Shown here piece after piece: positions 1 through 33,400 of a stretch of 35,316 bases of DNA (positions within the stretch are counted from its first letter, which is position 1; every line of letters begins with the position of its first letter). Source of the stretch: a virus (lineage: Duplodnaviria; Caudoviricetes); the IMG/VR virus record IMGVR_UViG_3300032257_000069, positions 1 through 35,316 of that record. One strand, given 5' to 3'. A program made the translations under genes and the position numbers. The notes below the pieces were generated by a model that saw only the letters and a list, made by a program, of their open reading frames with translations, made no database searches and was not told the DNA's origin.

Positions 1-127
1 TCGCGCAGGAAAACGCACGCGACCGCAGCCAGCATCCATTTGTGCGCCGATCCTTTACCGGCACACCGCAGCGCACTGATGGCGCAATGGTGCGGTTCGC
101 AGATGGCAGTTATGCGGTGATCGATAA
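1..127. repeat. Terminal direct repeat (assembly overlap) identical to 35190-35316; indicates a circular or circularly permuted 35,189-bp genome
   Basis: TCGCGCAGGAAAACG...GGTGATCGATAA occurs at both ends. 127 nt is a common assembler k-mer length, and a reading frame runs straight through the junction. Confidence 0.95.
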
Positions 128-3100
128 CACTGCGATCAATCCACCAGGTACGGTGCGCGCCCTGTTCCAAGATGGTCTGAAAAAACGCTGGTATCATCTG
201 ATAAAAACCAAGCGCAAGGCATGGCACGGCACCCCGAAAAAGACGGCGTTCACACAGTTCGATACGCAATATATCGGTACAGGCGAAGGCGTTCAGGCGT
301 TTGGCTGGGGTCTGTACTATGCTGATGGTCGTCACACATCTGAATATTATCGAAAGGGTGATCAACGCATTGAAGATCGTGACTATAAAGATCATGAACT
401 TCAATGGACGTTCCTGAACGACAGAAACCGCACCCGCAACTGGAAAGATCGCGCCTTCATCCTGAAAACAATCGTTGGCAATGCTGTCCGCGAAGAAACG
501 CATCGAAATCTGACATCGCAATCACTGCGCAAAGCGGCATCAATCCTGATCAGTGATCGCACAGGCAAGCCAGCGACAGAGGCCGCTATCGATGCCCTGA
601 TCAAGCGCGAAACCAACACAGTGATCCGCGCAGACCATGCGATGCCGCGATCCAGCACGAAAGAAGATCAATATGCTGTATTGCGGCGGCTGGCCCATGA
701 AGCGCGCGATGCCCTGATCCACGAAAGAAAAACAAACGATCTGCGCCGCAACCGGATGCGCGCGGCCAACAACGCCCTGCGCGATGCCCTGACGGTGGGC
801 GATCCTGCTGTGGTTCGCCGCGCGATGCGCCGGGTGATCAGGATCGACGGGCAAGAAAACGCTGCGCTGTTTTCGGCGCTCTATGTGCATCTGCCGACAA
901 AGGCCGAAAAGGGCCGTCTGTATCGCGTGGACCTGCAGAATGGTCCGTGGCTGGTCTGGGATGATCGCGTTGACAGTTATTCGATGGCCGCTGTCAAAGA
1001 GGCCATGAAGAAAGCTGGGCGGCTGGCGACGGACAACCAGCGCCAAGCATGGGATTGGCTCGAACGCCAGTCTGGCGGTGCCAATGGCAGCGCCCTGTAT
1101 CACACACTGCAGATGATCAATGGATCAGATCGCGCTGCATCACTGTTCTTGGCGGGCATGGGCTATCGCGGGATAAAGTTCGCAGATGGCAACACGCGGG
1201 ATCGCAAACTTCGCCGCACTTGGAACTATGTGGTGTTCTCCGGTGAAGATGTCACGATCCGCGAAGTTCACCAGCAGCGCCGGGGATCGCTCACAATCCC
1301 GGTTGAAGGCGTCCTGTCTGCCAACAGCGTTGTGATGCGACTGGGCAAGGCGGCTGATAAATCAACCGTGATCCATGAGTTCGGCCACATCTTTCTGGAA
1401 CTGGAACGCGAACTGTCCAAGGAAAGCCCTGCGGTCGCGCAGCGCTATGCGCAGACAGCCGCATATCTGGGTTTCGATCCTGCCGGGACTATTCCAACAG
1501 ACGCGCACGAGGCGTTCGCGGAAAGTTTCGAAACGTGGACCGCGACGGGAAAAGCGCCAACACCAGGATTGGCCAAAGCGTTCCAAGCCTTCGCCAACTG
1601 GATGCGCGAAGTCTATCAGTCGCTGCGCAAAATGACGCGCCTGACACCCGAACTGCAGGCGACATTCGAAAGCATGTTTGGGGCGCAAAATGCGGCCGCA
1701 GAAGAAAAGGCCGGCACTGGCGTTTTCCCGTCATCATCTGGTGATCGCGGATCACGAAACCGCGATGTCGTGCAGCAGAAGCCGATCCTGAAAGACGAAC
1801 GGGTTTCACGCATACGCGACATCGAACGGCGGCTGGCCAAACTGTTTGGTGTCACCGAGCGCGAACGCCGCATGACATCGAAACGCTATCTGGGTGTTTA
1901 CTATCCGAAAACAGGCGTCATTCGCCGCAATAAGGGCGTGATCGAAGAACTGGAAACACTGGCGCATGAAATCGGCCACGCATGGCAGTTCAGGCACGAT
2001 GCCGCCTATCAGAACTGGGTGGGTGCAGATGGCGCGCTGGTCAAAACATGGGCCTATCCCGGCGCTCGCAAAGGCAGCGAAGAAATCGAGGGTTTCGCAG
2101 AGTTTTTCCGCTGGTTCATGACGAACCCGAACTATGCGCTGGGCGAAAGCCGGGAAAAGTTCGCACAGCTTGAACGCGCGCTGGAAGCCACGATGGGCAA
2201 GAACATCATGGCGGAAGTCGAAGCGATCCGCGCTGAATATGAACTATGGCTGACAGCGCCAGATTACGATGTCGCCAGTACGCGCGTCGTGAAAACGCTG
2301 CGCAACCCTATCGAACAGATCAGCGAAGATGTCCGCAGATCAGGCGCTGTTGGCGTCGTGTCCCAGATGGCCAATGATACCTATCGCGTGATCATCGATC
2401 AGCAGAACCCGCTGGGGCAGCTTACAGACGCATTGCAGCGCGCCATCGAACAGAACACGAAGGAACAGACGGGTGTGAACAAGCCCGCTGAAATCCGGCC
2501 ATCTGAAAACCCCTACATCTTGTCACGGCTGGCACTTGATAGCGGCGCGGCTGGCCAGATGGATATTGTTCACGGCGTTTCTGAATATCGCGGCACAGAC
2601 GGCACTGGTCCGTCACTGGCTGATGCGGTCGAAGTCGCGCTGGGCAAGAACATCATGCAAAGCTGGAACGATGCCGATCTGCAGGACTTCGGTGTTTATC
2701 TTGTCAGTCGCCGGATGGAGGAAGAATGGCAGCGCTTCAAAGATGGCAAAATCCCGAACCGGCCTGATCAGCTTTCACTGCCCGCGCATGAAAAGATCAT
2801 CGCTGATCTGGAACAGTCTGAACGCGGTGCGCGATACCGCGAAGCCGCGCAAATGATCTATGAGTGGAACAACAACCTGCTGAAAAAATCCTATGATGCG
2901 GGTCTGATCACGAAAGACACATATCAGTATCTGCTGGCCGAACGCACCGCCTACGTCCCAGTGATGCGCGAACGGTCTGATGAAAACGTGCTGCAGACTG
3001 TGAACGGCGCAGCCACGCCATCGCGGCGCAACAAAATGAAACTGATCACCCGCTTTCAGGGAAGCAATCGCGCGATCATCAATCCCCTCGAAAGCATGAT

Positions 3101-5426
3101 GGCCCGCGCCTATCATGTGAATGCAATCATTGCCCGCAATGACGCGATCAATGCCGCGTGGCGGCTGGCCACGCGCGCCGGAAAGCGCGGCGGTGCCTTC
3201 ATCGAACGGGTGCCACCCAAGACGCTGACAGCCGACACAGTGCCGTTCGAAAAGTTCAAGGAAGGTTTCAAGTCAGAGAACGGCATCGATCTGGATCATC
3301 TGTTCAACGATGATGTGAACATCGAGGACTTGAACGAACTGAATGCGCTGCTGTTCAAATGGGTGGAAAGCCCTGAAGGCAATGAGCCGATCCTGTATGC
3401 ATGGCGCAATGGCGAGCGCCACATGCTGCGCCTGCCTGATGCAGAGTTCGGCAAAACCGTGTTCGAGGCGTTCGCCGCCATCGGCACGGACCAAAGCAAC
3501 GCCATCGAAAACCTTCTGTCTTTCCCCACAGCCGTCCAGCGTTTGAGCATCACAACAGAATGGGCATTCCTGATGGCGAACTTTGTGCGCGATCAGTTCA
3601 CAAGCTGGATATTGACAGAGGACGCCACGCCAATCGTCACCAGTGTTGGCGGCATGGTGTCCGAGATACGACAGGACGAATGGTCAAAGCGCTACAATCG
3701 CGCTGGGGGGCTGATGGGCGGTGCCAATGTCGGTGCGCTGCGCAAAGGCCAGATTGCCCGCGACATGAAGTCAATGCGCAAGAAGGGCTGGTTCATCCGG
3801 CGCTTCAAAAGCTGGACCGGCGTGATGCAACTGTCTGAACTATCCGAGACTGGCACGCGGCTGGGTCTGTTCAGAAACGCCTTCAAGCGCCTGAAGCGCG
3901 ACGGCATGTCAGACCATGACGCGATGGTGCAGGCCGCATTCCAAGCCCGCGATTATATCGATTTTGGCCGCTATGGCTCGCGCATGAACTTCGCGCGTCG
4001 TCTGATCACATTCCTGAATGCGATGCTGCAGGGTACTGACAAGGCGGTGCGGGTGGTGTTCGCCAACAAGGCAGTTCGCCGCACGCTGCGCGAAGCCATG
4101 ACTGGCGAGAAAACGCAATACACAGTCGAGGAAGCACGCCAACGGCGGGTGGGCATCAAGGCATTTATGAAACTGATGTCCACCGGGTTCATCGGATACC
4201 TGGTGCATCTGCTTTACTCGGATGAACCGGAATATCAGGAGTTCAGCGCATACCTTCGCGCGACACACTGGATGGTGCGGATCAATGGCCAGTGGGTCAG
4301 CGTTCCCAAGCCGTTTGAACTGGGCATGATTTCCAACATTGTCGAACGCGCAATGGAAGCGCGCGACTTTGATGATCCGACTGCTTGGAACCGGCTTCTG
4401 ACAGATGCGCGCTACACGATGCTGCCACCTAATCAGGCACCGATCATCACAGTGCCAATGGAGTTGTGGGCTAATCGCCGCTCGTTCGACGATGCCCCGA
4501 TAGTTTCCCCGTCACTGGAAAGACTGCCGCCCCAGATGCAGCACGATGCATTCACGTCGCGCCTCGGTCTGGGTGTGTCCTACGCCCTGTCACCGATCAG
4601 CCGCATGTTCGGCGGCGAAGGTGTGTCACCTGAAAAAGTCGATCACGCGCTGGCAGGGTTTGGCGGATCATGGATGCGCAATGCGCAGGGCTTGTCCAAC
4701 ATCATCTGGGGCGATGCATCAGCCAACACGCTGGCTGACACACCAGTTCTGCGCAGGTTCTTCCGCGACAGTTCGCGCGGATCGCGGGTGCGCGGCGATT
4801 TCTATGATTATGCAAGCGAACTGCGTGGCCGGTTTGAAAACGCGCGGGCGGGTTATCGTGAACAGGTTCGCCGCAATGACATCGAACGGGCTGTGCAACA
4901 TCTTCAACAGTTAGATCCAATAGAACGCGATTATGCGCTGCTGTTCACAAATGGAGAAACCGCAGACCGGCGATTGCACCCGCTGGATCGATCCCGGCGC
5001 GCGATGGCCGCGAACCGGGGGCTGCAGGACCAGCTTCGTCGCAGGGCGGTGCGCAGGCTTCGCACAGAAACCCTGATCGCCAGCGATCTGACACAGCGCC
5101 AGCGCGGCGATCTGATTGGCCTGTTGAACAACCTGTCCAGCTATGAAGCGCGCTGGGCGCTGACAACAATCGGCGTGGGTGGGTACAATGACAGCCAACC
5201 GCAATATGACCGCACGGCGATCCTGCAGCAGATCAGGGATATTTCGCCCGCAATCTATACCGAACTGGCGCGGCGCTATCGCATTAACCGGGTTACGAGC
5301 GAAGAAGCATCAAATACCTGGTGGATGCGCCGACAACCATTGATCCAGTCCGACATCGAAGAACGGATTTATCAAATAGAGGCACAACGCACGCGGCAAA
5401 ACATGATACCCCGCGAACCAAACTAG
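3..5426 (+). CDS. C-terminal part of giant polyvalent virion/ejection protein (continues from 30440 across the junction): ART-like domain, two HExxH metallopeptidase-like domains, LPD38-like C-terminus
   Basis: The frame is open upstream of the GTG at 42. ART-PolyVal-like pattern AWHGT..F..FD..IGTGEG.QAFGWGLYYA...LYRVDL...GYRGIKF...NYVVF. HEFGH at 1374 followed by HEAFAESFE..GKAP; HEIGH at 1965 followed by EGFAEF. LPD38-like DFGRYG..FLNA.LQG, PKPFELG, ELWANR.SF, SPEKVDH. Confidence 0.85.
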   Translation, partial: AQENARDRSQHPFVRRSFTGTPQRTDGAMVRFADGSYAVIDNTAINPPGTVRALFQDGLKKRWYHLIKTKRKAWHGTPKKTAFTQFDTQYIGTGEGVQAFGWGLYYADGRHTSEYYRKGDQRIEDRDYKDHELQWTFLNDRNRTRNWKDRAFILKTIVGNAVREETHRNLTSQSLRKAASILISDRTGKPATEAAIDALIKRETNTVIRADHAMPRSSTKEDQYAVLRRLAHEARDALIHERKTNDLRRNRMRAANNALRDALTVGDPAVVRRAMRRVIRIDGQENAALFSALYVHLPTKAEKGRLYRVDLQNGPWLVWDDRVDSYSMAAVKEAMKKAGRLATDNQRQAWDWLERQSGGANGSALYHTLQMINGSDRAASLFLAGMGYRGIKFADGNTRDRKLRRTWNYVVFSGEDVTIREVHQQRRGSLTIPVEGVLSANSVVMRLGKAADKSTVIHEFGHIFLELERELSKESPAVAQRYAQTAAYLGFDPAGTIPTDAHEAFAESFETWTATGKAPTPGLAKAFQAFANWMREVYQSLRKMTRLTPELQATFESMFGAQNAAAEEKAGTGVFPSSSGDRGSRNRDVVQQKPILKDERVSRIRDIERRLAKLFGVTERERRMTSKRYLGVYYPKTGVIRRNKGVIEELETLAHEIGHAWQFRHDAAYQNWVGADGALVKTWAYPGARKGSEEIEGFAEFFRWFMTNPNYALGESREKFAQLERALEATMGKNIMAEVEAIRAEYELWLTAPDYDVASTRVVKTLRNPIEQISEDVRRSGAVGVVSQMANDTYRVIIDQQNPLGQLTDALQRAIEQNTKEQTGVNKPAEIRPSENPYILSRLALDSGAAGQMDIVHGVSEYRGTDGTGPSLADAVEVALGKNIMQSWNDADLQDFGVYLVSRRMEEEWQRFKDGKIPNRPDQLSLPAHEKIIADLEQSERGARYREAAQMIYEWNNNLLKKSYDAGLITKDTYQYLLAERTAYVPVMRERSDENVLQTVNGAATPSRRNKMKLITRFQGSNRAIINPLESMMARAYHVNAIIARNDAINAAWRLATRAGKRGGAFIERVPPKTLTADTVPFEKFKEGFKSENGIDLDHLFNDDVNIEDLNELNALLFKWVESPEGNEPILYAWRNGERHMLRLPDAEFGKTVFEAFAAIGTDQSNAIENLLSFPTAVQRLSITTEWAFLMANFVRDQFTSWILTEDATPIVTSVGGMVSEIRQDEWSKRYNRAGGLMGGANVGALRKGQIARDMKSMRKKGWFIRRFKSWTGVMQLSELSETGTRLGLFRNAFKRLKRDGMSDHDAMVQAAFQARDYIDFGRYGSRMNFARRLITFLNAMLQGTDKAVRVVFANKAVRRTLREAMTGEKTQYTVEEARQRRVGIKAFMKLMSTGFIGYLVHLLYSDEPEYQEFSAYLRATHWMVRINGQWVSVPKPFELGMISNIVERAMEARDFDDPTAWNRLLTDARYTMLPPNQAPIITVPMELWANRRSFDDAPIVSPSLERLPPQMQHDAFTSRLGLGVSYALSPISRMFGGEGVSPEKVDHALAGFGGSWMRNAQGLSNIIWGDASANTLADTPVLRRFFRDSSRGSRVRGDFYDYASELRGRFENARAGYREQVRRNDIERAVQHLQQLDPIERDYALLFTNGETADRRLHPLDRSRRAMAANRGLQDQLRRRAVRRLRTETLIASDLTQRQRGDLIGLLNNLSSYEARWALTTIGVGGYNDSQPQYDRTAILQQIRDISPAIYTELARRYRINRVTSEEASNTWWMRRQPLIQSDIEERIYQIEAQRTRQNMIPREPN
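1687..1719 (+). repeat. 33-bp exact direct repeat, copy 1 (AAAATGCGGCCGCAGAAGAAAAGGCCGGCACTG)
   Basis: Identical to 13509-13541. Confidence 0.9.
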
Positions 5427-8174: not shown

Positions 8175-8176
8175 AG

Positions 8177-8204
8177 CAGGGGTGTTCATTCATGCACCCG
8201 CCTG
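8177..8204 (+). terminator. Possible weak hairpin after the tail genes
   Basis: CAGG-GGTG...CACC-CG-CCTG imperfect stem; the T-run is displaced. Confidence 0.3.
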
Positions 8205-8390
8205 ATCGATTTTGTGGAAAGTGTTTATAACCCAGCGCGGTTTTGAACACTTTCTGCACAGGCTCTAACCGCATCAGCAAAAGGAATGGCTCTATTTGTC
8301 CAAGTTTTCCACGGCACCACAACAATCTCAAAACTTAAAAAAAGATTATTGGGACTGTGGACATGTGGATAAGTAGAACCGGAAAAGGGA
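8205..8390. other. Putative oriC-like replication origin: DnaA-box cluster in an AT-rich intergenic spacer
   Basis: Perfect TTATCCACA on the - strand at 8364-8372, overlapped by ATGTCCACA (8356-8364). Single-mismatch boxes against TTWTNCACA at 8213-8221(-), 8222-8230(-), 8241-8249(+), 8252-8260(+) and 8305-8313(+). AT-rich core at about 8320-8350. Confidence 0.75.
8335..8349 (+). promoter_or_regulatory. CtrA-like binding site (TTAA-N7-TTAT)
   Basis: One mismatch to the alphaproteobacterial CtrA consensus TTAA-N7-TTAA. It lies in an AT-rich tract, so chance is possible. Confidence 0.4.
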
Positions 8391-10311: not shown

Positions 10312-10531
10312 AACGCCAATGACACCGCAGCAGAAGGTGATCGCTGCTGCTGCGGTCGCCAGCGCGCTGGGTGTTCTGGCCAGTGCCGTGAACTTTGGAT
10401 ACATCGCGCTGCATGACCGCGAACATCGCGTGATGACACTGAACGAACTGTGCGGTGCAGAACTGTCTGGCGATCCTGAAAAGGATGATCCATTGATTAC
10501 GGCGCGCAATGCGATGGGGGGGTGTCGATAG
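10286..10531 (+). CDS. Small membrane-anchored hypothetical protein (possible lysis accessory)
   Basis: One TM segment and two Cys. Start is uncertain (10280, 10286 or 10319). Confidence 0.5.
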   Translation: MPVHDSPRKTPMTPQQKVIAAAAVASALGVLASAVNFGYIALHDREHRVMTLNELCGAELSGDPEKDDPLITARNAMGGCR

Positions 10532-10569
10532 AATAAACCCGCCGCGCTGGTGTTAGGGCGCGACGGGTT
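10532..10569 (-). terminator. Intrinsic terminator oriented for a minus-strand transcript
   Basis: On the - strand: AACCCGTCGCGC-loop-GCGCGGCGGGTT followed by TATT. Confidence 0.6.
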
Positions 10570-10620
10570 CAGGGGGGGACCGTGAGGGTCGGATGTTGCT
10601 GGCTGGGGAGACAACAACCC
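10532..10620 (-). ncRNA. Predicted ~88-nt leftward small RNA with anti-Shine-Dalgarno motifs (AbcR/alpha-r15-like)
   Basis: 5' hairpin GUUGUUG-UCUCCCCAGC-CAGCAAC, then GGUCCCCCCCUGAA, then a terminator hairpin. Both stems have G-U pairs on the - strand that would be A-C mismatches on +. Upstream promoter-like TTGACT-17-CAGAAA. Confidence 0.6.
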
Positions 10621-10623
10621 GAT

Positions 10624-10653
10624 TTTTCTGGGCCGGTTTTTCAGAAAAGTCAA
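10624..10653 (-). promoter_or_regulatory. Leftward sigma70-type promoter overlapped by inverted repeat TTTTCTG-N11-CAGAAAA (candidate operator)
   Basis: -35 TTGACT (10653-10648), 17-nt spacer, weak -10 CAGAAA (10630-10625). Inverted repeat spans 10624-10648. Confidence 0.5.
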
Positions 10654-10659
10654 ATGTGG

Positions 10660-10689
10660 TTGCACCCTCTGGGCGAAAGGCGCTAGAAC
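10660..10689 (+). promoter_or_regulatory. Rightward early promoter, probably giving a leaderless mRNA
   Basis: TTGCAC-18-TAGAAC. GCTAGAAC fits the Caulobacter-type -10 GCTANAWC. The ATG lies 4 nt downstream with no room for an SD. Confidence 0.55.
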
Positions 10690-10693
10690 TGTC

Positions 10694-10939
10694 ATGGGCG
10701 AAACAGTGAAAACATTCAGGCAGTGGCTTTCAGAAAACGACATATCCCAGAACAAGGCATCGAAGCGCTTAGGCGTTTCGCAGCAGTGGGTTTGCATGTT
10801 GTGCGATCCTGCCGATCCATCCCGTCCCAGTGTCCAGTTGCTGATGGAAATCGAGGAATGGACAGACGGCGCTGTTTCGCTCGCCAGTTGGCGAGACAAA
10901 GGAGCATTGCCGCATGAAAGTCTGGAAACTGATCCGTGA
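10694..10939 (+). CDS. Cro-like helix-turn-helix regulator
   Basis: WL...ISQ..ASKRLGVSQQWV......RPS..L...IE..T.GAV...W, typical of Cro/YdaS-like proteins; first gene of the rightward operon. Confidence 0.8.
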   Translation: MGETVKTFRQWLSENDISQNKASKRLGVSQQWVCMLCDPADPSRPSVQLLMEIEEWTDGAVSLASWRDKGALPHESLETDP

Positions 10940-11216
10940 CTGGTGGGCGAAAACGCATTCACCAGGTCAAAACATACTGCACGAGCGACAGCACAAAGCA
11001 GCCCGCCGCGCACAGATTGGCGACGATCTGAAAAACCTGTCTGCGCAGTTGCGCAAAAGCCGACAGTTAGAACACGACTATGCCCACGGACGCGCTGCGC
11101 GCCGGGGCAATCAGTCATGGGAGAATGCGACTACAGCAGTCGCACAGGCAGACCGTTTCCGGTCTGCGCAACATCTTGCGAAACGCAAGAAACAACCGAA
11201 AGGGAAACCCGCATGA
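10914..11216 (+). CDS. Basic hypothetical protein
   Basis: AAGGAG RBS before the ATG; coupled to both neighbours. Confidence 0.65.
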   Translation: MKVWKLIRDWWAKTHSPGQNILHERQHKAARRAQIGDDLKNLSAQLRKSRQLEHDYAHGRAARRGNQSWENATTAVAQADRFRSAQHLAKRKKQPKGKPA

Positions 11217-11602
11217 AAATGAACTTTGCAAGGAAACTGTTCACAGAAGATCGTGAACCAATGCGCGAGAGGGTGAAGCCAGATGGATCACCAGACCCGT
11301 CTAGCGACGTTCTCACGCTGCGCAAGGCGGTGGGCATCATTGGGCGGCGCTCGCACCCAGATGCCGATAAGACCGACACACAGGACAAGTCAGATTTACG
11401 GTTCCATCTGGTTCTGAAAATCAACCCGCACCCGGTCGGCGTCGACGTGTTTGATGTCACCGTGGAAGAATGCGCGGCCATCAAGGAGCGCGCCCATTAT
11501 TTCTTCGACGCATGGGTGTCTGGGCAGGTTCGTCAAATGCTGGATGATCCAGAATGGACACTGGACCCAGCGCCAAAGAAAGCCACCACGTCCGAAAAAT
11601 AG
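11213..11602 (+). CDS. Phage hypothetical protein (129 aa)
   Basis: ATGA coupling at 11213. LTL..RF.L.LKI....D.T.EE.A.IK...V.G....ML pattern resembles a common small phage protein family. Confidence 0.65.
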   Translation: MKMNFARKLFTEDREPMRERVKPDGSPDPSSDVLTLRKAVGIIGRRSHPDADKTDTQDKSDLRFHLVLKINPHPVGVDVFDVTVEECAAIKERAHYFFDAWVSGQVRQMLDDPEWTLDPAPKKATTSEK

Positions 11603-11605
11603 AAC

Positions 11606-11631
11606 CGGGCGAAACACACGGCCATTCAGGA
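11606..11631. repeat. Inverted-repeat arm in the leader/RBS of ORF 11642, complementary to 15513-15540
   Basis: CGGGCGAAACACACGGCCATTCAGGA versus TCCTGAATGGCCGTGTGTGTTTCGCCCG: 26 matches plus a 2-nt insertion. Confidence 0.9.
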
Positions 11632-11641
11632 GGGCCAATCT

Positions 11642-12052
11642 ATGAGCAATATTAAAACCGCCGAAAAAGTCGCGGCTGACATTCAGTCGATGATCACACT
11701 GCTGAAAGACAGCAGCGAAATCGAAGGACTGCCAACCTTGTCAGACGACGATCTGAACCGGCTGGCCACGGACCCGATCACAGCCGCCCTGCAGTTCAAG
11801 GCGTCCAGATTGAAGTTCATCAAGGAGATAATCGACCAGCAGGCGGCACATGGAACATCTGTTGTCATCATGGGCTTTATCCCAGCAGTCGAAGGCGAAC
11901 ATCACGCGACGACATGCATCACGCCGGGATTGGCGTCAGAAGTGCTGGCGCGCGGTCTGTTTGAACTTGTCCACGGCAATGCATCACTTAGCGCGGAGTT
12001 CAGCGCGCTGGCGATTGAAGCTGCCACGAATATGATGGGGAAGGGCAAGTGA
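11642..12052 (+). CDS. Hypothetical protein (136 aa)
   Basis: Strong AGGAGG RBS; no recognisable motif. Confidence 0.75.
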   Translation: MSNIKTAEKVAADIQSMITLLKDSSEIEGLPTLSDDDLNRLATDPITAALQFKASRLKFIKEIIDQQAAHGTSVVIMGFIPAVEGEHHATTCITPGLASEVLARGLFELVHGNASLSAEFSALAIEAATNMMGKGK

Positions 12053-12477
12053 TGGGACAGCCAAGCTACAAGCGCGTTGAAAAACCAGAACCAGACCCGC
12101 GCCAGATCGAAATGTTCGAGGGACCGGCAACGGTCGCAGAAACCCCGGCATGGTGCAGGTCGCAGGCGTTCAAGGACGCACTGAAAAAGATGCCCGCCAC
12201 CCAGCGCGACATCTGGGAAGCCATCGCCAGATCAGAAGCCAGCTTCCCCGGTCGCGGCATGACCTGTGAAGAACTGGTCTGGGCGGTCTGTGAAATCCGC
12301 CAGTTGCCGGAAGGCACAGGGCCGGGGCTTCTCACGATCCGCCCGAATGTCACCCGCATGAAGCAGGCCGGTCTGATCGAACCCGTCAAACGCCGCGGTA
12401 AAACAGAAAGCGGGAAAGCCTGCACGGCCTACGCGCTTGTTGACCCGGCGAAGAAGAAGGAAGCACGCCATGACTAA
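12049..12477 (+). CDS. Winged-helix DNA-binding protein
   Basis: GMT.EEL...TIRP.VT.M..AGLI.....KT.SGK....Y pattern. Start is 12049 or 12052. Confidence 0.7.
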   Translation: MMGQPSYKRVEKPEPDPRQIEMFEGPATVAETPAWCRSQAFKDALKKMPATQRDIWEAIARSEASFPGRGMTCEELVWAVCEIRQLPEGTGPGLLTIRPNVTRMKQAGLIEPVKRRGKTESGKACTAYALVDPAKKKEARHD

Positions 12478-12829
12478 ACACCGCCACATGAAAACCTACC
12501 GAGGGCCGGAAGGCGAGGACTTGCGTGTTGCAGAACGCATCAGGATCGCCCGCAATCACGCCGGGGTGTCGCAGGAAAAAATAGGCAGGGCGCTGGGGAT
12601 CAGCTTCCAGCAGGTCCAGAAGTACGAGAGCGGCAAGAACCGGATCACCGTGGGCAAGCTGTCGCGCTGGTCCATCGCGGTTGGCGTTCCATTAACCGTT
12701 CTGCTTGATGGTCTGGGATACCTACCCCAGCGCAAACAGGCGAAACCTGGTGGATTGGAATATGATGATACACAGGCGAACAAGCGTTCACCGGAGACAT
12801 GGGAGGGCTTTATCGATGGCACACGATGA
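12470..12829 (+). CDS. XRE-family HTH transcriptional regulator
   Basis: RIRIAR...GVSQEKIG.ALGISFQQVQKYESG.NRI, the XRE subtype typical of alphaproteobacteria. No S24 peptidase domain. Confidence 0.9.
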   Translation: MTKHRHMKTYRGPEGEDLRVAERIRIARNHAGVSQEKIGRALGISFQQVQKYESGKNRITVGKLSRWSIAVGVPLTVLLDGLGYLPQRKQAKPGGLEYDDTQANKRSPETWEGFIDGTR

Positions 12830-13022
12830 CAAACTGCTGGTGTTCGGGACTTTGGAAACACCGAAAATGCCGAACTTTTTGAGAGCAAAACTGCACGGCG
12901 TCGATGTTTCGATCAATGTGGGAACGCTGACACCGGAACAGGCGGAAGCATTCGCGGCGATCTGGACGGAAGCATTCACGCATCACTGCGCCAAGCTGCG
13001 GGAGGTATTGGGCAATGGCTAA
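12816..13022 (+). CDS. Hypothetical protein (68 aa)
   Basis: GGGAGG RBS before ATG 12816; coupled to neighbours. Confidence 0.65.
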   Translation: MAHDDKLLVFGTLETPKMPNFLRAKLHGVDVSINVGTLTPEQAEAFAAIWTEAFTHHCAKLREVLGNG

Positions 13023-13305
13023 GGCATCACAAGTGTTCGAAACCGCCACCGCGCACCCAGATTGGAACGCGGACCAGATCGCAGAAGCGCTGGATTGTTC
13101 GCCATCCTATGTGCGCACGACATTCTATCGCGCTGGTCTGCCTGTCCCAAACAAACAGGATCGCGCAGCGTTCAAGCCAGTCACCCGCTGCGCACTGGCG
13201 CTGGCATCCATCGCAGAAAAACAGGACGTGAACAGTCCCGCATTTCATAAGGCTTATGCTGAACTGGAATGCGCTATCGAAAAGGAACAGATACATGCCC
13301 CATAA
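13015..13305 (+). CDS. Small HTH protein
   Basis: HPDWNADQIAEALDCSPSYVRTT..R.GL helix-turn-helix pattern; GGAGG RBS. Confidence 0.65.
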   Translation: MAKASQVFETATAHPDWNADQIAEALDCSPSYVRTTFYRAGLPVPNKQDRAAFKPVTRCALALASIAEKQDVNSPAFHKAYAELECAIEKEQIHAP

Positions 13306-13591
13306 AAAAAAGACCCCGCTTTTTCTGGTGATGCAGCGCGCGGCGCTGGTTATCCTTGTTCTCGGTGCCGTCCAGCTTGTCGCCACGGTTAGTTTGATCG
13401 CTGGCGCCCTGCTTGGCACCGCAGTGCTGACCTTCATCGTCGGCATCCTGCTGGAAGATAAACACCGCGCTGATGTCAGTCGCGCGTTCGATCACAACCC
13501 GTTCACTGAAAATGCGGCCGCAGAAGAAAAGGCCGGCACTGCGCAGCGCGCACCGCGACCAAAGCGCGCGACGGAAGGTTCAGACGAATGA
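13295..13591 (+). CDS. Two-TM membrane protein
   Basis: AAGGA RBS; long hydrophobic hairpin. Confidence 0.65.
   Translation: MPHKKKTPLFLVMQRAALVILVLGAVQLVATVSLIAGALLGTAVLTFIVGILLEDKHRADVSRAFDHNPFTENAAAEEKAGTAQRAPRPKRATEGSDE
13509..13541 (+). repeat. 33-bp exact direct repeat, copy 2
   Basis: Identical to 1687-1719. Confidence 0.9.
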
Positions 13592-13914
13592 TCCGGCGCA
13601 CAGGGATCATGGCCGCGATGCTGGCGGCTGGTGGGGTGCTGGGGCTTGGCCCCGGCATCGCGTCGGTCGGCGGTGACACCCAGACGACGCGCACCGCATC
13701 TGCAGAACAGCAGCAAGGCAAACAGAACAAACAACGGCCTGCGGTTCGAATACAGCGCCAGCAGGTGCGCTATAACCCAGACGGTTTTCGTCGTCGCCAT
13801 GATGGCATTCATCGCAGTTCAGGCTGGTGGAACAAACGGCGCTGGAAACTATCAAAGCAGACCGGCAAAAAGTCCGGTCGCGGAAACCGCAAAACAGGAG
13901 GTCGCGCACGATGA
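13588..13914 (+). CDS. Highly basic hypothetical protein with hydrophobic N-terminus
   Basis: ATGA coupling at both ends; R/K/G-rich C-terminus. Confidence 0.6.
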   Translation: MIRRTGIMAAMLAAGGVLGLGPGIASVGGDTQTTRTASAEQQQGKQNKQRPAVRIQRQQVRYNPDGFRRRHDGIHRSSGWWNKRRWKLSKQTGKKSGRGNRKTGGRAR

Positions 13915-14102
13915 CACATTCAACAGGTAGTGACGGGTGTGGCGGCTGCGCCATTGTCGTTTTCTTTGTCGCATTCGCGGCATGGCTCACTCATGTTGTG
14001 ACCTGTTTCCAAACAGGCGCATGGGGTTTTCTGATTGGCGGTGCGCTGTTCTTCCCGGTCGCCATTGTTCACGGCGTTCTGATTTGGCTGGGGGTGGCGT
14101 GA
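13911..14102 (+). CDS. Small membrane protein (63 aa)
   Basis: AGGAGG RBS; AWLTHV..C....W.FLI.GALFFP..IVHG..IW hydrophobic pattern. Confidence 0.7.
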   Translation: MTHSTGSDGCGGCAIVVFFVAFAAWLTHVVTCFQTGAWGFLIGGALFFPVAIVHGVLIWLGVA

Positions 14103-14908
14103 TGACTAAGGCTCCCGATAGCCTCCGCATGGCGATCAAAACGGCGCTTCTGGAAGAAGTCGCCTTCGAGCATTCCGACGAGGACGGCACACACCTGACG
14201 GGATTGGACGAGGCGACATGGCGCATCCTTGCTCTTATCCAACAGCCAGCCGTGAAGGTTAAGGCGCTGGAGTGGAAAGAGCCGAGCCAGCTTACGAACG
14301 GATGTTGGGTCGCAGACACGCCGTTCACCGGATACAGTATTTGCCACGAAGATTGTCGGTTTCATGTCATTTGCGAAGGCTGGAATATCAGCGGTGACGA
14401 TCAAGACGTAGCACTTGATTGCCCCACCCTAAAAGCCGCCAAAGCCGCAGCACAGGCTCATTACGACAAAGCAATCCGTGAAGCACTGGAGCCCATCCCT
14501 GACGGGTGGGGTGTGTTCCCGCTTGAACCAACAGAGGCGATGCTCGAAGCTTCATGGCGCGATACGCAAGAGGTATCGGCCAGCGAACGAATGGCCGCAG
14601 AACTTGGCGATGCTCGGGCGGCTCATCGCCACAAAATGCGCCGACGATACCGAGCCATGCTCTCCGCCGCTCCTGTCCCTGACGGTATGGTGATGATTGA
14701 GGCGCTTCGCCCGCGTTCAGGCGGCAACATAATCCACGCGCGACGTGCAAACTGCACCATATCTGCTGGCCGTACTTTGTGCAGTCGCTACTCTGTCGGC
14801 TGGCCCCCGTTGACGGAGAAGTTTGACCCTCTGAACGCCATGTCTTGCGTGCAGTGTGTCAACGGATACCGCAACATGATCGCCAACGGCCTGCAGGTGA
14901 CAACATGA
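14102..14908 (+). CDS. Mosaic accessory protein (268 aa)
   Basis: Contains common phage mini-modules VKVK.LEW...TL.AAKAAAQA.Y and VP.EPTEAML.A...YRAML.AAP-like, plus a C-terminal H..C..CxxC cluster. Confidence 0.65.
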   Translation: MTKAPDSLRMAIKTALLEEVAFEHSDEDGTHLTGLDEATWRILALIQQPAVKVKALEWKEPSQLTNGCWVADTPFTGYSICHEDCRFHVICEGWNISGDDQDVALDCPTLKAAKAAAQAHYDKAIREALEPIPDGWGVFPLEPTEAMLEASWRDTQEVSASERMAAELGDARAAHRHKMRRRYRAMLSAAPVPDGMVMIEALRPRSGGNIIHARRANCTISAGRTLCSRYSVGWPPLTEKFDPLNAMSCVQCVNGYRNMIANGLQVTT

Positions 14909-15126
14909 CTGAACAGCGTGAACGCCACCGCCTGAAGGCCAGCTATGCGGGCCAGCCGTTGGCTGTTCTGCGCGCTGAATATCGAAACTGGAAGGAAGTG
15001 CGGGATCGCCACGTTCGGGCATCCCGCGATACACTGGCGGCTATGGCGCAGATGCGCCTGACCGTGATCACCGAGGAAGTCGAAATCCAGAAAGGGAACA
15101 AACACAATGACCGACAGACCAGATAG
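14905..15126 (+). CDS. Hypothetical protein (73 aa)
   Basis: ATGA coupling; AGGTG RBS. Confidence 0.6.
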   Translation: MTEQRERHRLKASYAGQPLAVLRAEYRNWKEVRDRHVRASRDTLAAMAQMRLTVITEEVEIQKGNKHNDRQTR

Positions 15127-15478
15127 CACTGAAGCGCTGGCGATCCAGACCATGCGCGACACAGCTGCATTGGCGTTTCGCTACAAACAGGAACTGGACG
15201 CCATCAAGAAACCCGCTTCATCCCGGCGCGTGGAACAGGCAGAACTGGCGACACATGAAGCAGAAGAAGCGCTGCAGGCGCTGGCCACACGACTGCGCGA
15301 AGCCATTGGCCAGACCATGATGGGCATGACACTGCGCAACAGATTGAACGAAATCATTGATGACCTGGTGCCGCGCAAAGACAGCCTGTCCGACTTCCTA
15401 GCGCGGGAACAGACACCCCTTGGCAACAATGTATTGAACACCGAGGCGCAGTTGCACAGATGCGGGCCTTGTCCCTGA
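15107..15478 (+). CDS. Hypothetical helical protein
   Basis: AAGGGA RBS; coiled-coil-like composition. Confidence 0.6.
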   Translation: MTDRPDSTEALAIQTMRDTAALAFRYKQELDAIKKPASSRRVEQAELATHEAEEALQALATRLREAIGQTMMGMTLRNRLNEIIDDLVPRKDSLSDFLAREQTPLGNNVLNTEAQLHRCGPCP

Positions 15479-15498
15479 TCGCAGGGCGATGATAGACC
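15469..15498 (+). promoter_or_regulatory. Promoter-like element containing palindrome CCCTG-ATCG-CAGGG
   Basis: TTGTCC-18-TAGACC has the same geometry as the 10660 promoter. Palindrome at 15473-15486. Confidence 0.4.
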
Positions 15499-15502
15499 AC
15501 TC

Positions 15503-15593
15503 TCACGGTTGTTCCTGAATGGCCGTGTGTGTTTCGCCCGAAACGCCGCGTCATGCCCTCGCACCCTCCCGGTTGCGGGGGCATTTCGTTTTT
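15503..15593 (+). ncRNA. Predicted ~90-nt antisense small RNA
   Basis: Lies between a promoter-like element and a terminator; complementary to the leaders of ORFs 11642 and 22795. Confidence 0.55.
15553..15593 (+). terminator. Intrinsic terminator ending the early region
   Basis: ATGCCCTCGCACC-CTCCC-GGTTGCGGGGGCAT followed by TTCGTTTTT. Confidence 0.75.
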
Positions 15594-15638
15594 GGATCAA
15601 TCGCGGCATATACTGTCCGCAATCGGGAGAAATAACGA

Positions 15639-16250
15639 ATGGCACAGCTTCGCAATACACGCTGGGAAAAGTTCGCGCAGCAGATCGCAAAAGGCATGTC
15701 TATCGTGGACAGCTATCAGGTCGCTGGGTACGCCGCGAAAACATATTCTGCGAGCGCGACACTCGGTTCCAGATTGTTCAAAAAGGTTGAAATCCAAGAA
15801 CGGGTGGATGAACTGCGGCGCGCTGGGGCAACACGCGCTGAAATCTCCGTCGAACGGGTTCTGCGAGAACTGGCAGGCATAGGGTTTGCGAACATGTCCG
15901 AGTTCGTGCGCATCGATGACAATGGACACCCGCAGGTCGATCTATCCACACTGACACCGCATCAGGCCGCAGCCATCAGCGAAACCCGCACTGAATGCGT
16001 TCTTCCCGGCGTCTTGAAAGATGGGAAGAAGGCGGGCGATCCTGACTGCTGGCAGTCACCGCCTGAATACAAGATCATGATCAAGCTGCATCCGAAAATC
16101 CCGGCGCTGGTCAAACTGGGTGAACATGTCGGCGCATTCGATGGTGAAGGCGGCAAGCAGCAGCCGGTTCAGTTCTTCTTTTCAGACCAGCCGATGTCAG
16201 AAGCCGACTGGATGGACCAGCACGGCATCGATGACGATCAGGGCGACTGA
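15639..16250 (+). CDS. terS: Terminase small subunit
   Basis: L.N.R.EKFAQ....G.....SY..AGY...RL.....I..RV.EL; VLREL..IGFAN; AL.KLGEH.G.F. Directly upstream of terL. Confidence 0.9.
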   Translation: MAQLRNTRWEKFAQQIAKGMSIVDSYQVAGYAAKTYSASATLGSRLFKKVEIQERVDELRRAGATRAEISVERVLRELAGIGFANMSEFVRIDDNGHPQVDLSTLTPHQAAAISETRTECVLPGVLKDGKKAGDPDCWQSPPEYKIMIKLHPKIPALVKLGEHVGAFDGEGGKQQPVQFFFSDQPMSEADWMDQHGIDDDQGD

Positions 16251-22766: not shown

Positions 22767-22794
22767 TGGACGGAACACACACGCGAGGCACACA

Positions 22795-30439: not shown

Positions 30440-33400
30440 GTGCGGCGACATCTTCAAAACACCACAGCCCTGAACTTTCGTTCGCGGCTGGTGCCAGTCG
30501 GCGGCGATCCGGCGCGAGAGGAAGAAGCCCCTCAAACGCCCGCACAGCCGCGTTTCAGTTTTCGGGATCGTCTGACGCCTTACACACCGCCCGCCGCGCC
30601 TGATGCCTCACCAGCGCCGCCGCGTGTGCGCCTTTCGCGTCCAGACGCGGCACCCGTTCCCGCGCCTGAAGCCGATCCGGCACCAGAAAGGCCGGCACCA
30701 GGTCCGACACGCCCACAATGGGAAACCCCAGAAGGTTCTGGCCCTGTCGGTTCTGGCTTCGACATGTTTGGCGCAGCGCGCCGCGAAGTGGGCCGCAGGC
30801 TCACCAATGCGTTCACGATGTCGGAAGAACGCCAAGCGCGCCATGACCGCGACAACCTTGCAGGACAGGAGCGCAGAACGCAGCGCGCCGACCGTCGCGC
30901 GAACTATCGAAACGCTGATGTCTATGATCGATCGATGCGCGCCATGCGGGAGGTGCAGCAGCAAAATCTGACCGCTGGGTTCCCGCTCACAGAAGATTTG
31001 GATGCGACAATCGCACGCGGTCGCAGCGATGCGCAGCGTGAACAGAACCGTTCGCACGGATTGCTGAATGAAGCGCGCCGGATCGTTCGCGGTGAACGCG
31101 AAGGCGCAACGCTGGGGCCGATTTATTCCGGCACTGCAGGCGCATTGGGACGCGCGTTTGAAGTGCCAGCGCAGGTTTCTGATGCCGTGGTTGCCCCGGT
31201 TGCGGGCCTGTTTACTGGACAAGCGCCATCCCAGACCGGCGCTGCGCGCTTCGCGGAAGATTGGCGCGAAGGCACGCGCGAACTGCTCCCAACTGATCCT
31301 GTCCGATCAGAGTTTCAGGAGTTCGGGCAAGCTGCAGGCGAAGGCATTGGCTCAACGGTTCCGTTTCTTGTCACTGCTGCGGCAACGGGCGGCAATCCTG
31401 TGGCGCTGGCCACGATGGGCGCGGTCCAAGGCGGTGCTGAAACTATCCGCGATGCGCAGGATCACGACGCGACTGGCGCGCAGGAATATCAGGCACTGTT
31501 GGCGGGGTATCTGGGCGGTGTCACCGAGGCCGCGCCATTTGCCCGGTTAATGCGCCGGGTGGACGCCGCCCGCAAGGCACATCGCCAAGGACGGGTGAAC
31601 TGGTCGCAGGTGATCCGCGACACGGCTGAACAGTCTGGTGAAGAAGGTTTTCAGGAAAGCATTCAGACCGCCATTCAGAACATCGCTGCAGATCAGATTG
31701 GCTATGATGAAGGCAGGCCGCTGGCGCAAGACATGGCGCAGGCCGCAGCGATTGGCGCGCTGACAGGCGGTCTGATGGGCGGGGGTGGCAGTGCAGCCGG
31801 TCAAGCCTTAACGCCCCCTGATCCAACTATCGATGAAATCACAGTCCCGCCATCGCCCGGTTCTGATGCCGCCGCGATCCTGAACGCTGCGCCATCTGGC
31901 CAGCCGCAGGAAATACCTGGTGGAAGCATTCAGCTACCCGATGCGTTCGATACGAGCCTGCAGGTGGACATCGATCCGCGCACCCGCGAAGCGCTGCAGG
32001 ACGTGACAGACCTGTATAAGCAACAGCGCGCTTTGGAGCGTTCAGAAGCCGCTCGCGCACGCCCTATCCTGTCATGGCTGCGCAGCGAAGGTGTCACGCC
32101 AACCGATCAAAACGCCAGCGATCTGCGCGCCATTCTGGACACAGGTGCGCTGGGGATATTCCGGCATGGTGGCAAGACTTTAGACGATATAGGTCTATCA
32201 GTAAGTGAACACCTGCCCGATCTGTTCCCGAATGGACGCCCTGCAGTCAATGAACTGTTGAACATGATCCAGCAGGAAGAAGGCAACCGCGCTGTTGGTG
32301 TCCAGTCCGACGAACTGCGCGAAGTCAACGACCTGATCAGCCTGTTCGAGCGCGAAGGGTTCGATCTGGGCGGTGACGCACTCGCCAATATCGATGTGAT
32401 CCGGCGCATCCAACTGCGCGAAAGTCTTGAGCCGGTCCAGCCAGATGCCGCCCCTGAACAAAATCCTCAACTTCCCCAAGGGGAACTTGAGACACACCAG
32501 CAACAGGACCGCGCCAGCGATCCAGTCGCAGACCTGAATGCGCGCATGGATGAACTGCAGGTGCAGGCAGATCAGGGAAGCGAGGCGGCACTAGAACAGC
32601 TTGATGCACTGGCCAGCCAACTGGAAAGCGCGGGCCTGAACAATGCCCCGATTATCGACGCACCCGCGATCTTGGCGAACGAAAACCGCCCCGGCTACAT
32701 CGCTGCAGAAGTGCGCAGGCAGATCAGCCAGTCTGAACAATCGGTCGAAGGTGCAGACGCGATCTTTCAGGCGATCTGGAACAATGAGGCGCGCACTGAA
32801 AGCGAAGCCGCACTGGCGCAGGGCATCATCTATGCCGCCGCAGATCAGATCGAACACGAACAGGGCCGGTTTTTCGAGCCAGATAGCGCACTGGATGAAC
32901 TTCTGCTGGACCAACAGGGTCTGGGCCGACCGGCAACGCGAGTGTCAGAGGACATCAGGCGCTTGCCAGAAGATGACCTGTTCAGGCTGGGGCTTCCGCT
33001 GCAACAGCGCATGGATCGCGCACAGCAGGCGATGGACGAACTGACAGCAGGCAGGCCGCGCACAGACCTGTCACTGATGGAACAGGGCCAGCTTGAATAT
33101 TATGAACGCCGCCAGCGTTACTATTCGCAACTGCGCAATGACCAGCGCCGCGCGGTGATCATTGCCAATAGCCGCCCTGATGCCCGCGCTGGCGATCTGA
33201 CCTATTGGGACAGTCAGCGCCGGGAATGGACCGTGTGGAAGGTTCTGCCGTCACAGGAACAAGAAGGCAAATGGGCGGTGGCAAGCATTCACGCCAACCA
33301 CATTCTGCCAGACAGAGTTGATCTGTCGCTGGACAACTTCATTCGCTATGCCCCAGTGCGCGAACACTACAAGTTCGACACAGAGGAAGAAGCGCGCGAA

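Follow-up and report, generated by a model that had tools for sequence, protein, structure and literature searches.

A predicted two-seed antisense RNA that may cap translation of the early block in a podovirus-like phage genome

We propose that the intergenic region closing the early block of a circular podovirus-like phage genome encodes a short RNA, here named S, that would act in trans as a two-seed antisense RNA and cap translation of the early genes. Judging from sequence and structure modelling, we give this reading a probability of about 0.65. S most likely works in a C4-like manner yet lies outside the C4 family. The window, by which we mean the whole 35,316-nt stretch of DNA analysed, is one phage genome with direct terminal repeats of 127 nt, and its CheckV completeness is 71% despite these repeats.

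Genome and early block

All recognised genes lie on the + strand, namely terS, terL, portal, capsid, tail, two giant proteins, endolysin and the early block (10694-15478), and the closest capsid matches are to Bradyrhizobium phage ppBjS10J-1 (47.5%) and to Mx8/Mx9-like phages. Family and profile scans of the genome's ORFs recognised no integrase, cI, antirepressor or replication protein, with the large ORF 30440-35188 compared with NCBIfam only. In run X1, possibly the source, a single unbranched contig covers 10000-13538, the part of the circle compared with reads, and the absent cI arm therefore does not correspond to a visible assembly break. The two giant proteins are of virion type (42-5426 and 30440-35316), the second with LPD38 and a metallopeptidase motif. 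An exact 33-nt direct repeat (1687-1719 and 13509-13541), which is coding in both copies, one in a giant protein gene and one in early ORF 13295, breaks the contigs of run X1; at ORF 14102 (14220-14700), short segments recur in other contigs of each of the three runs, which marks a mosaic hot spot.

Over the whole genome, AATT is observed 0 times against 96 expected and GANTC 0 times against 131, and besides these two at least 13 other palindromic words have been purged; many palindromic 6-mers are missing. GANTC is also very scarce in several terL relatives (L005-L012). The absence of GANTC, together with the RpoD-like promoters described below, suggests an alphaproteobacterial host. An oriC-like site is found at 8175-8390, ahead of the endolysin gene and at the genome's lowest G+C. 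The most AT-rich stretch of the genome, 8201-8373, contains six DnaA-box-like sites including the genome's sole perfect one, scored against what we take to be the DnaA-box consensus, and 1/200 simulated genomes reached six. Here too are a palindrome (8217-8254) and a tandem pair of boxes, which precedes a short C run, trio-like triplets and a T run on the - strand.

The features that open the early block and its main coupled part are as follows.

10660..10689, + strand: predicted early promoter; -35 at 10660-10665, 18-bp spacer, -10 matching 8/8 positions of the RpoD consensus given in PMC8144410
10694..10939, + strand: Cro/YdaS-like HTH gene, the first early gene, assigned from ESM Atlas feature matches and HTH profiles
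11642..12052, + strand: ORF 11642, a 136-aa orphan and the first of 11 early ORFs that overlap one another as far as 15478

The product of ORF 10694 gave ESM Atlas feature matches of 0.92-0.94 to YdaS_toxin/P22_Cro and XRE clusters, with weak HTH profile matches. Across the 14 early ORFs, stop and start overlap at 12 of the 13 junctions (starts 12816 and 13911 were read from the printed sequence for this count), the exception being the 39-nt gap before ORF 11642, and ORFs 10694 and 11642 are the only early starts without overlap with a preceding gene. Since several of the overlapped genes have an SD of their own, the coupling is possibly partial. An alternative GTG start at 10943 was rejected on its codon score (-0.27). 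Inside the block, 12470-12829 encodes an XRE/HTH_3 protein without cI features, which presumably resembles host-type alphaproteobacterial XRE regulators.

A long-range inverted match between two intergenic regions

By self-BLAST, 15540-15513 aligns with 11606-11631 at 26/28 identical columns with one 2-nt gap (E 0.002, 40.1 bits), and the reverse-complement match that the preliminary description had reported is real. The pair tops the 19 inverted matches listed, the next of which score 33.7 bits (a local palindrome) and 32.8 bits. As controls, a long-range inverted match at E ≤ 0.01 was found in 0/64 capsid-related loci. Among 80 terminase-related loci, ten had a long-range inverted match at E ≤ 0.05 and three reached at least 40 bits; these three are a dispersed repeat, a partly palindromic element and IS ends.

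Both arms are intergenic, as originally described, with 11603-11641 and 15479-15638 each lying between a stop and a start. Frames across the downstream arm score as non-coding (-0.10 to -0.51), and ORF 11642 scores as gene-like (+0.26). The AGGAGG SD of ORF 11642 occupies 11628-11633, and the 26-nt match takes in four of its six bases, which bears out the earlier statement that the pairing enters the SD.

S as a predicted promoter-to-terminator RNA

The downstream arm falls within a unit composed of four predicted elements.

15469..15498, + strand: predicted RpoD-type promoter of S; -35 at 15469-15474, 18-bp spacer, -10 at 15493-15498, predicted start near 15505
15504..15527, + strand: hairpin 1 of S, 10 bp with three consecutive G-U pairs; its CCUG loop is the putative anti-SD (b') seed
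15529..15546, + strand: hairpin 2 of S; its GCCC loop is the putative upstream-specificity (a') seed
15553..15593, + strand: intrinsic terminator of S, a GC-rich stem and T run directly before the terS leader

The promoter-like hexamers and the terminator hairpin with its T run are present as first described. Against the Caulobacter RpoD consensus given in PMC8144410, the S promoter is exact in the -35 and matches 6/8 positions of the -10, and with the early promoter it has in common the 18-bp spacer and the RpoD-like boxes. It was absent from the output of a sigma-70 scan of the genome. The two promoters are the sole genome-wide matches to a strict pattern built from them post hoc.

The region 15500-15593 folds at -43.8 kcal/mol (z -5.1), with 0/200 shuffles as good, compared with a z of -2.1 for the opposite strand, and the predicted + strand fold consists of the two hairpins and the terminator. 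The hairpins amount to -17.3 kcal/mol as RNA versus -7.8 as DNA, and the three consecutive G-U pairs in hairpin 1 favour RNA over DNA and suggest a stem that is easily displaced. Both loops have a predicted unpaired probability near 1 and are complementary to two target boxes, one over the SD and one upstream. S is a predicted RNA of about 90 nt running from promoter to terminator. With Rfam, all matches to S stayed below the gathering threshold, the best being anti-hemB (20.5 bits versus 49.5). The original suggestion of a trans-encoded antisense RNA on the RBS of ORF 11642 is supported by the strand-specific fold, the G-U stems, the loop position of the seeds and a net binding energy predicted at about -33 kcal/mol.

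Two further observations concern this region. A strong -10-like hexamer without a -35 lies at 15609-15614, between the S terminator and terS, and is a candidate activator-dependent late promoter. We also considered hairpin 2 as a parS site and rejected this, as it has three mismatches to what we take to be the parS consensus, the genome holds four such sites, and no ParB match was found.

The two arms might instead work only in cis, the 3' end of the early mRNA folding back on 11606-11631 to give an RNase III site or a delayed self-shut-off, or the S region serving as an attenuator in which a read-through cloverleaf hides the 5' arm of the terminator and transcription enters terS. Both arms do lie on one predicted operon, RNA from 15478 to 15565-15580 forms a closing stem over both hairpins using the terminator 5' arm (-39.0 versus -38.8 kcal/mol at 15580), and the order of promoter, short RNA, terminator and late genes resembles the PR'-tR' arrangement described in PMC7547250. 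However, several sites carry the same two boxes while a single molecule pairs with one at a time, S has a promoter-like site of its own, and the terminator is kept in every low-energy full-length structure listed. We regard action in cis alone as quite unlikely; cis pairing is compatible with action in trans and does not exclude it.

Target sites and the two-box pattern

The sites on which S is predicted to pair are these.

11606..11631, + strand: main target, the leader and first four SD bases of ORF 11642; the predicted pairing can stretch towards the AUG
10696..10720, + strand: second target, in the Cro/YdaS-like gene, which lacks an SD and has both boxes within codons 1-9; from cofolding and the two-box pattern
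10556..10588, + strand: T1, a third site with both boxes, which precedes the early promoter and pairs with S by many G-U pairs
10945..10961, + strand: weak two-box site in codons 11-16 of ORF 10914, from the two-box pattern
22771..22783, + strand: leader of late ORF 22795, with 13 nt complementary to S; a weak candidate target, second of 37 starts

The preliminary description had placed the two arms correctly and had missed the further two-box sites at 10696-10720, 10556-10573 and, weakly, 10945-10961. Pairing of S with the ORF 11642 leader has a predicted net energy of -31.6 to -34 kcal/mol, the best of 37 start regions in a ranking that placed starts 12819 and 13920 3 and 9 nt off. The Cro-like start, at -12 to -14.5 kcal/mol, is third of the 37, and T1, at -9.6 to -17.8 kcal/mol depending on the 5' end of S, ranks directly behind the main target in sets of 929 and 1016 windows once S itself is set aside. 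At 10945-10961, the equilibrium energy gives almost no net binding (-0.2 to -1.5 kcal/mol). The 13-nt complement at 22771-22783 compares with 0.08 expected per strand, and there is one 13-mer on the - strand too. In a genome-wide two-seed scan, the top two + strand sites, at 11606 and 10695, are those of the two early starts that overlap no preceding gene, and three - strand sites outscore the Cro-like site. On energy alone, then, the Cro-like site is not exceptional in these models, the - strand sites and the ORF 22795 leader ranking above it. The codons of the Cro-like gene that form the boxes, including a rare AGG, have a joint codon-choice probability of 1.3e-3, computed post hoc.

Two two-box patterns, also written post hoc, each matched four times, where shuffled sequences averaged 0.00 and 0.49 matches; two of the four are the arms themselves. 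The sense copies are all on the + strand within 10556-11631 (1.1 kb), and the sole reverse copy is S; under a Markov model, 0.022 would be expected in 1.2 kb of one strand. For comparison, among the matches listed for 119 viral loci chosen for having one two-box match, in a scan that covered about half of the viral collection, 110 loci had one site, seven had two, two had three and none had five.

The same boxes could instead be bound as DNA by a phage HTH protein of Cro-like or XRE type, or be recognised by an RNA-binding protein, with 15513-15540 an inverted copy. This would suit the presence of the first box within the spacers of both promoter-like sites, the palindromic nature of hairpin 2 as DNA and the several HTH genes in the genome. 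It fits poorly with a box spacing that varies from 7 to 15 nt across sites, with stems that need G-U pairs and fold on one strand only, and with sense copies that sit on translation starts, and we hold it to be very unlikely.

We give a very small chance to the segment 11632-15512 being invertible, as had been raised earlier, or to the arms being the scar of an old inverted duplication without current function. The 26-bp inverted repeat brackets 11 early genes, and 10555-10590 likewise resembles S inverted. Nevertheless, no recombinase was recognised among the ORFs scanned, in agreement with the earlier remark that no invertase is encoded, and the contigs of three runs contain no strand-changing joint, although only X1, possibly the source, covers both arms and contigs drop rare forms. 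The arms also differ by a 2-nt gap, and inversion leaves the loop-placed seeds and the site in the Cro-like codons unexplained.

The gene behind the main target

The product of ORF 11642 is an acidic protein of 136 aa (pI 5.1) without a hydrophobic segment, its top 19-residue hydropathy being 1.14. It matched no family in Pfam, PHROG, NCBIfam or PADLOC, among them no toxin, Ant or defence family, its ESM Atlas matches were all under the bar, and its structure model (pLDDT 46.7) is too poor to use. Type I toxins are small and hydrophobic, under about 60 aa, and the ORF 11642 product is not of that type. Trans-encoded antitoxins have long near-perfect complementarity over the target SD. An extended match of this kind to a strong SD, also described for C4 and sar (PMC12197685), is what would speak for type I toxin-antitoxin or antirepressor silencing with ORF 11642 itself dangerous, a reading with only a minute chance given the size and composition of the protein, its lack of a toxin, Ant or defence family and the lack of a recognised cI on which an antirepressor could act. 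The claim that ORF 11642 encodes a toxic or lytic-switch protein is likewise unsupported, although toxicity could coexist with a limiting role of S in the early phase. We suggest that ORF 11642 would be targeted because it heads 11 overlapping genes: with ORFs 10694 and 11642 as the only free entries, control by S would extend over both coupled blocks, and this does not require ORF 11642 to encode a toxin or an antirepressor.

A leftward unit in the cI slot

Two features lie on the other side of the early promoter.

10525..10620, - strand: candidate leftward small RNA, L, with three hairpins and a T-rich tail, in the cI slot of lambdoid phages; from its fold
10621..10651, strand not assigned: imperfect inverted repeat between divergent promoter-like sites, a candidate Cro operator

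On the - strand, 10525-10620 folds with a z of -4.9, versus -1.4 on the + strand; its last element is a hairpin followed by a T-rich tail, and the inverted repeat is overlapped by a -35-like hexamer at 10653. L contains both S seeds, mostly buried in its last stem, and its single-stranded stretches are C-rich in the predicted fold. Its best Rfam match was Atu_C7 (11.6 bits versus a gathering threshold of 45). That L is a paralogue of S was unsupported, as it ranked outside the top 12 of 727 windows by plain similarity and its net energy with the ORF 11642 leader is only -4.5. The segment may encode a second RNA, be targeted by S on its + strand, or do both.

Search for relatives

No relative of the S module was found in viral, metagenome and genome collections. 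ORF 11642 found only itself among 24 candidates, itself and one repeat-type 1365-aa match among 1.84 billion representatives, and nothing in 68 viral stretches; the search with ORF 11213 recovered no other sequence. For the Cro-like protein a single relative (72%) turned up, on a 518-nt contig without DNA. The alignment of the Cro-like protein gave 0/74 viral stretches; among 427 metagenome stretches it recovered the window's own contig alone, and in 56 genome stretches a single weak HTH, which is unrelated. The search with terS gave 0/8, and 80 terL and 64 capsid loci contained no S homologue and no shared early gene except one XRE. A pattern common to S and L occurred in 0 viral stretches, and when 10450-11700 was compared with 50,697 phages by blastn, the matches were all at E=5. 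Runs X2 and X3, neither of which covers S, hold only short pieces identical to the window and no arm variant. A look-alike of S at locus L211 was rejected because it lies within a terminase gene, and an 18-nt arm pattern had one match, in a coding region of an unrelated contig. Other repeats were seen in these loci: L078 (1623-2779) has an IS-like element with 26-nt inverted ends inserted directly before terS, and L050 (690-12570) has 60-90-nt palindromic repeats dispersed between genes. In the mostly open-access literature searched, with the original C4/CI papers outside its scope, we found nothing on an S-type RNA or on a lytic-phage RNA directed against block-head starts.

Comparison with known RNAs

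In C4, b' covers the RBS and a' pairs with upstream sequence (PMC5320573). Like C4 of P1/P7 (RF01695), S is trans-encoded and of similar size, with two seeds, b' and a', and more than one two-box target (PMC5320573, PMC12197685, PMC8198154). In S, the predicted b' over the RBS and a' upstream are both in loops, and the additional two-box targets, found with post hoc patterns, are in the regulated operon. The C4 model RF01695 found no match, whether over the window (E ≤ 1), over 15430-15640 (E ≤ 10) or when used alone (E ≤ 10). C4 is an RNase P-processed three-stem RNA with closing stem P1; S is predicted as a promoter-to-terminator unit with two free hairpins, and a closing stem is predicted for it only in the shortened read-through RNA, the terminator winning at full length. 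C4 heads its operon, upstream of icd/ant, whereas S lies 3.9-4.8 kb downstream of its targets, which are a Cro-like gene and an orphan instead of icd/ant, and no C1-type repressor was found. As for antirepressor control upstream of icd/ant, S is downstream and no Ant or cI family match was obtained among the ORFs.

P4 CI RNA silences without a protein repressor. Like it, S would silence by pairing with two sites on the early transcript (PMC4825925). P4 CI, however, is cut from between its own targets and acts by premature termination, whereas S is separate, all of its targets being 3.9-5 kb upstream, and these targets are translation starts; the sequences of S and P4 CI were compared through Rfam models only.

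P22 sar overlaps ant. S is like sar and lambda OOP in being a phage antisense RNA that would lower an early regulator, and the table of one review lists sar as trans and OOP as cis (PMC12197685); sar and OOP lie opposite the genes they target, whereas S is remote and has several targets. S also resembles StxS and lambda PR'-tR' as a short terminated RNA that heads the late genes and has a regulatory role, in S a predicted one (PMC7547250). StxS acts through Hfq on stx1AB and host rpoS according to the same source, whereas in this genome we recognised no Q-like antiterminator, and beyond the terminator there is a second -10-like hexamer.

Discussion

In the mechanism that we propose for the trans-acting cap, S would be transcribed from a host-type promoter of its own where the early operon ends, and host RpoD would fire the early and S promoters together, giving a pulse and then a cap. 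The CCUG and GCCC loops would kiss the boxes, after which the wobble-weakened stems could unzip into a duplex of at least 26 bp that RNase III might additionally cut. S would pair in this way with the RBS of ORF 11642 and, more weakly, with the Cro-like start codon. A blocked head start lowers the genes behind it through translational coupling and polarity, and initiation lost at the two block heads would spread to the 12 downstream ORFs via their stop/start overlaps and polarity. A stable S would accumulate with genome copy number, early proteins would be made in a pulse and then capped, and later-arriving genomes would be dampened. With an S promoter active from the first minute, such a cap needs a relief or a race so that ORF 11642 gets made.

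As to what the cap would serve, we tentatively favour a limiter or timer in lytic growth, at somewhat less than even odds, over a role in maintaining dormancy, which seems rather improbable. The lytic limiter is favoured because no integrase or cI was recognised and because palindromes are purged from this genome, restriction-site avoidance being a trait stronger in lytic than in temperate phages (PMC8410138). By analogy with P4 CI (PMC4825925), the oriC-like origin would also fit a plasmid-like resting state with S as an immunity RNA. In a fuller version, which we consider unlikely, RNA would stand in place of CI: the phage would rest as a DnaA-driven minichromosome that needs no phage protein, S and L would silence the Cro-like gene and the ORF 11642 block, and Cro would repress L at the inverted repeat, making an RNA-versus-Cro toggle within a control region of lambdoid style.

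If S acts as predicted, one short RNA would gate a 14-gene early operon through its two free starts, one of them a Cro-like start codon, in a phage where no repressor is recognisable. This would mean that recognition by two seeds, as in C4, has also evolved outside that family, for the control of early genes rather than of an antirepressor. S would also be a compact natural toehold riboregulator and a candidate for early-gene timing or for superinfection exclusion in phages that lack a repressor.
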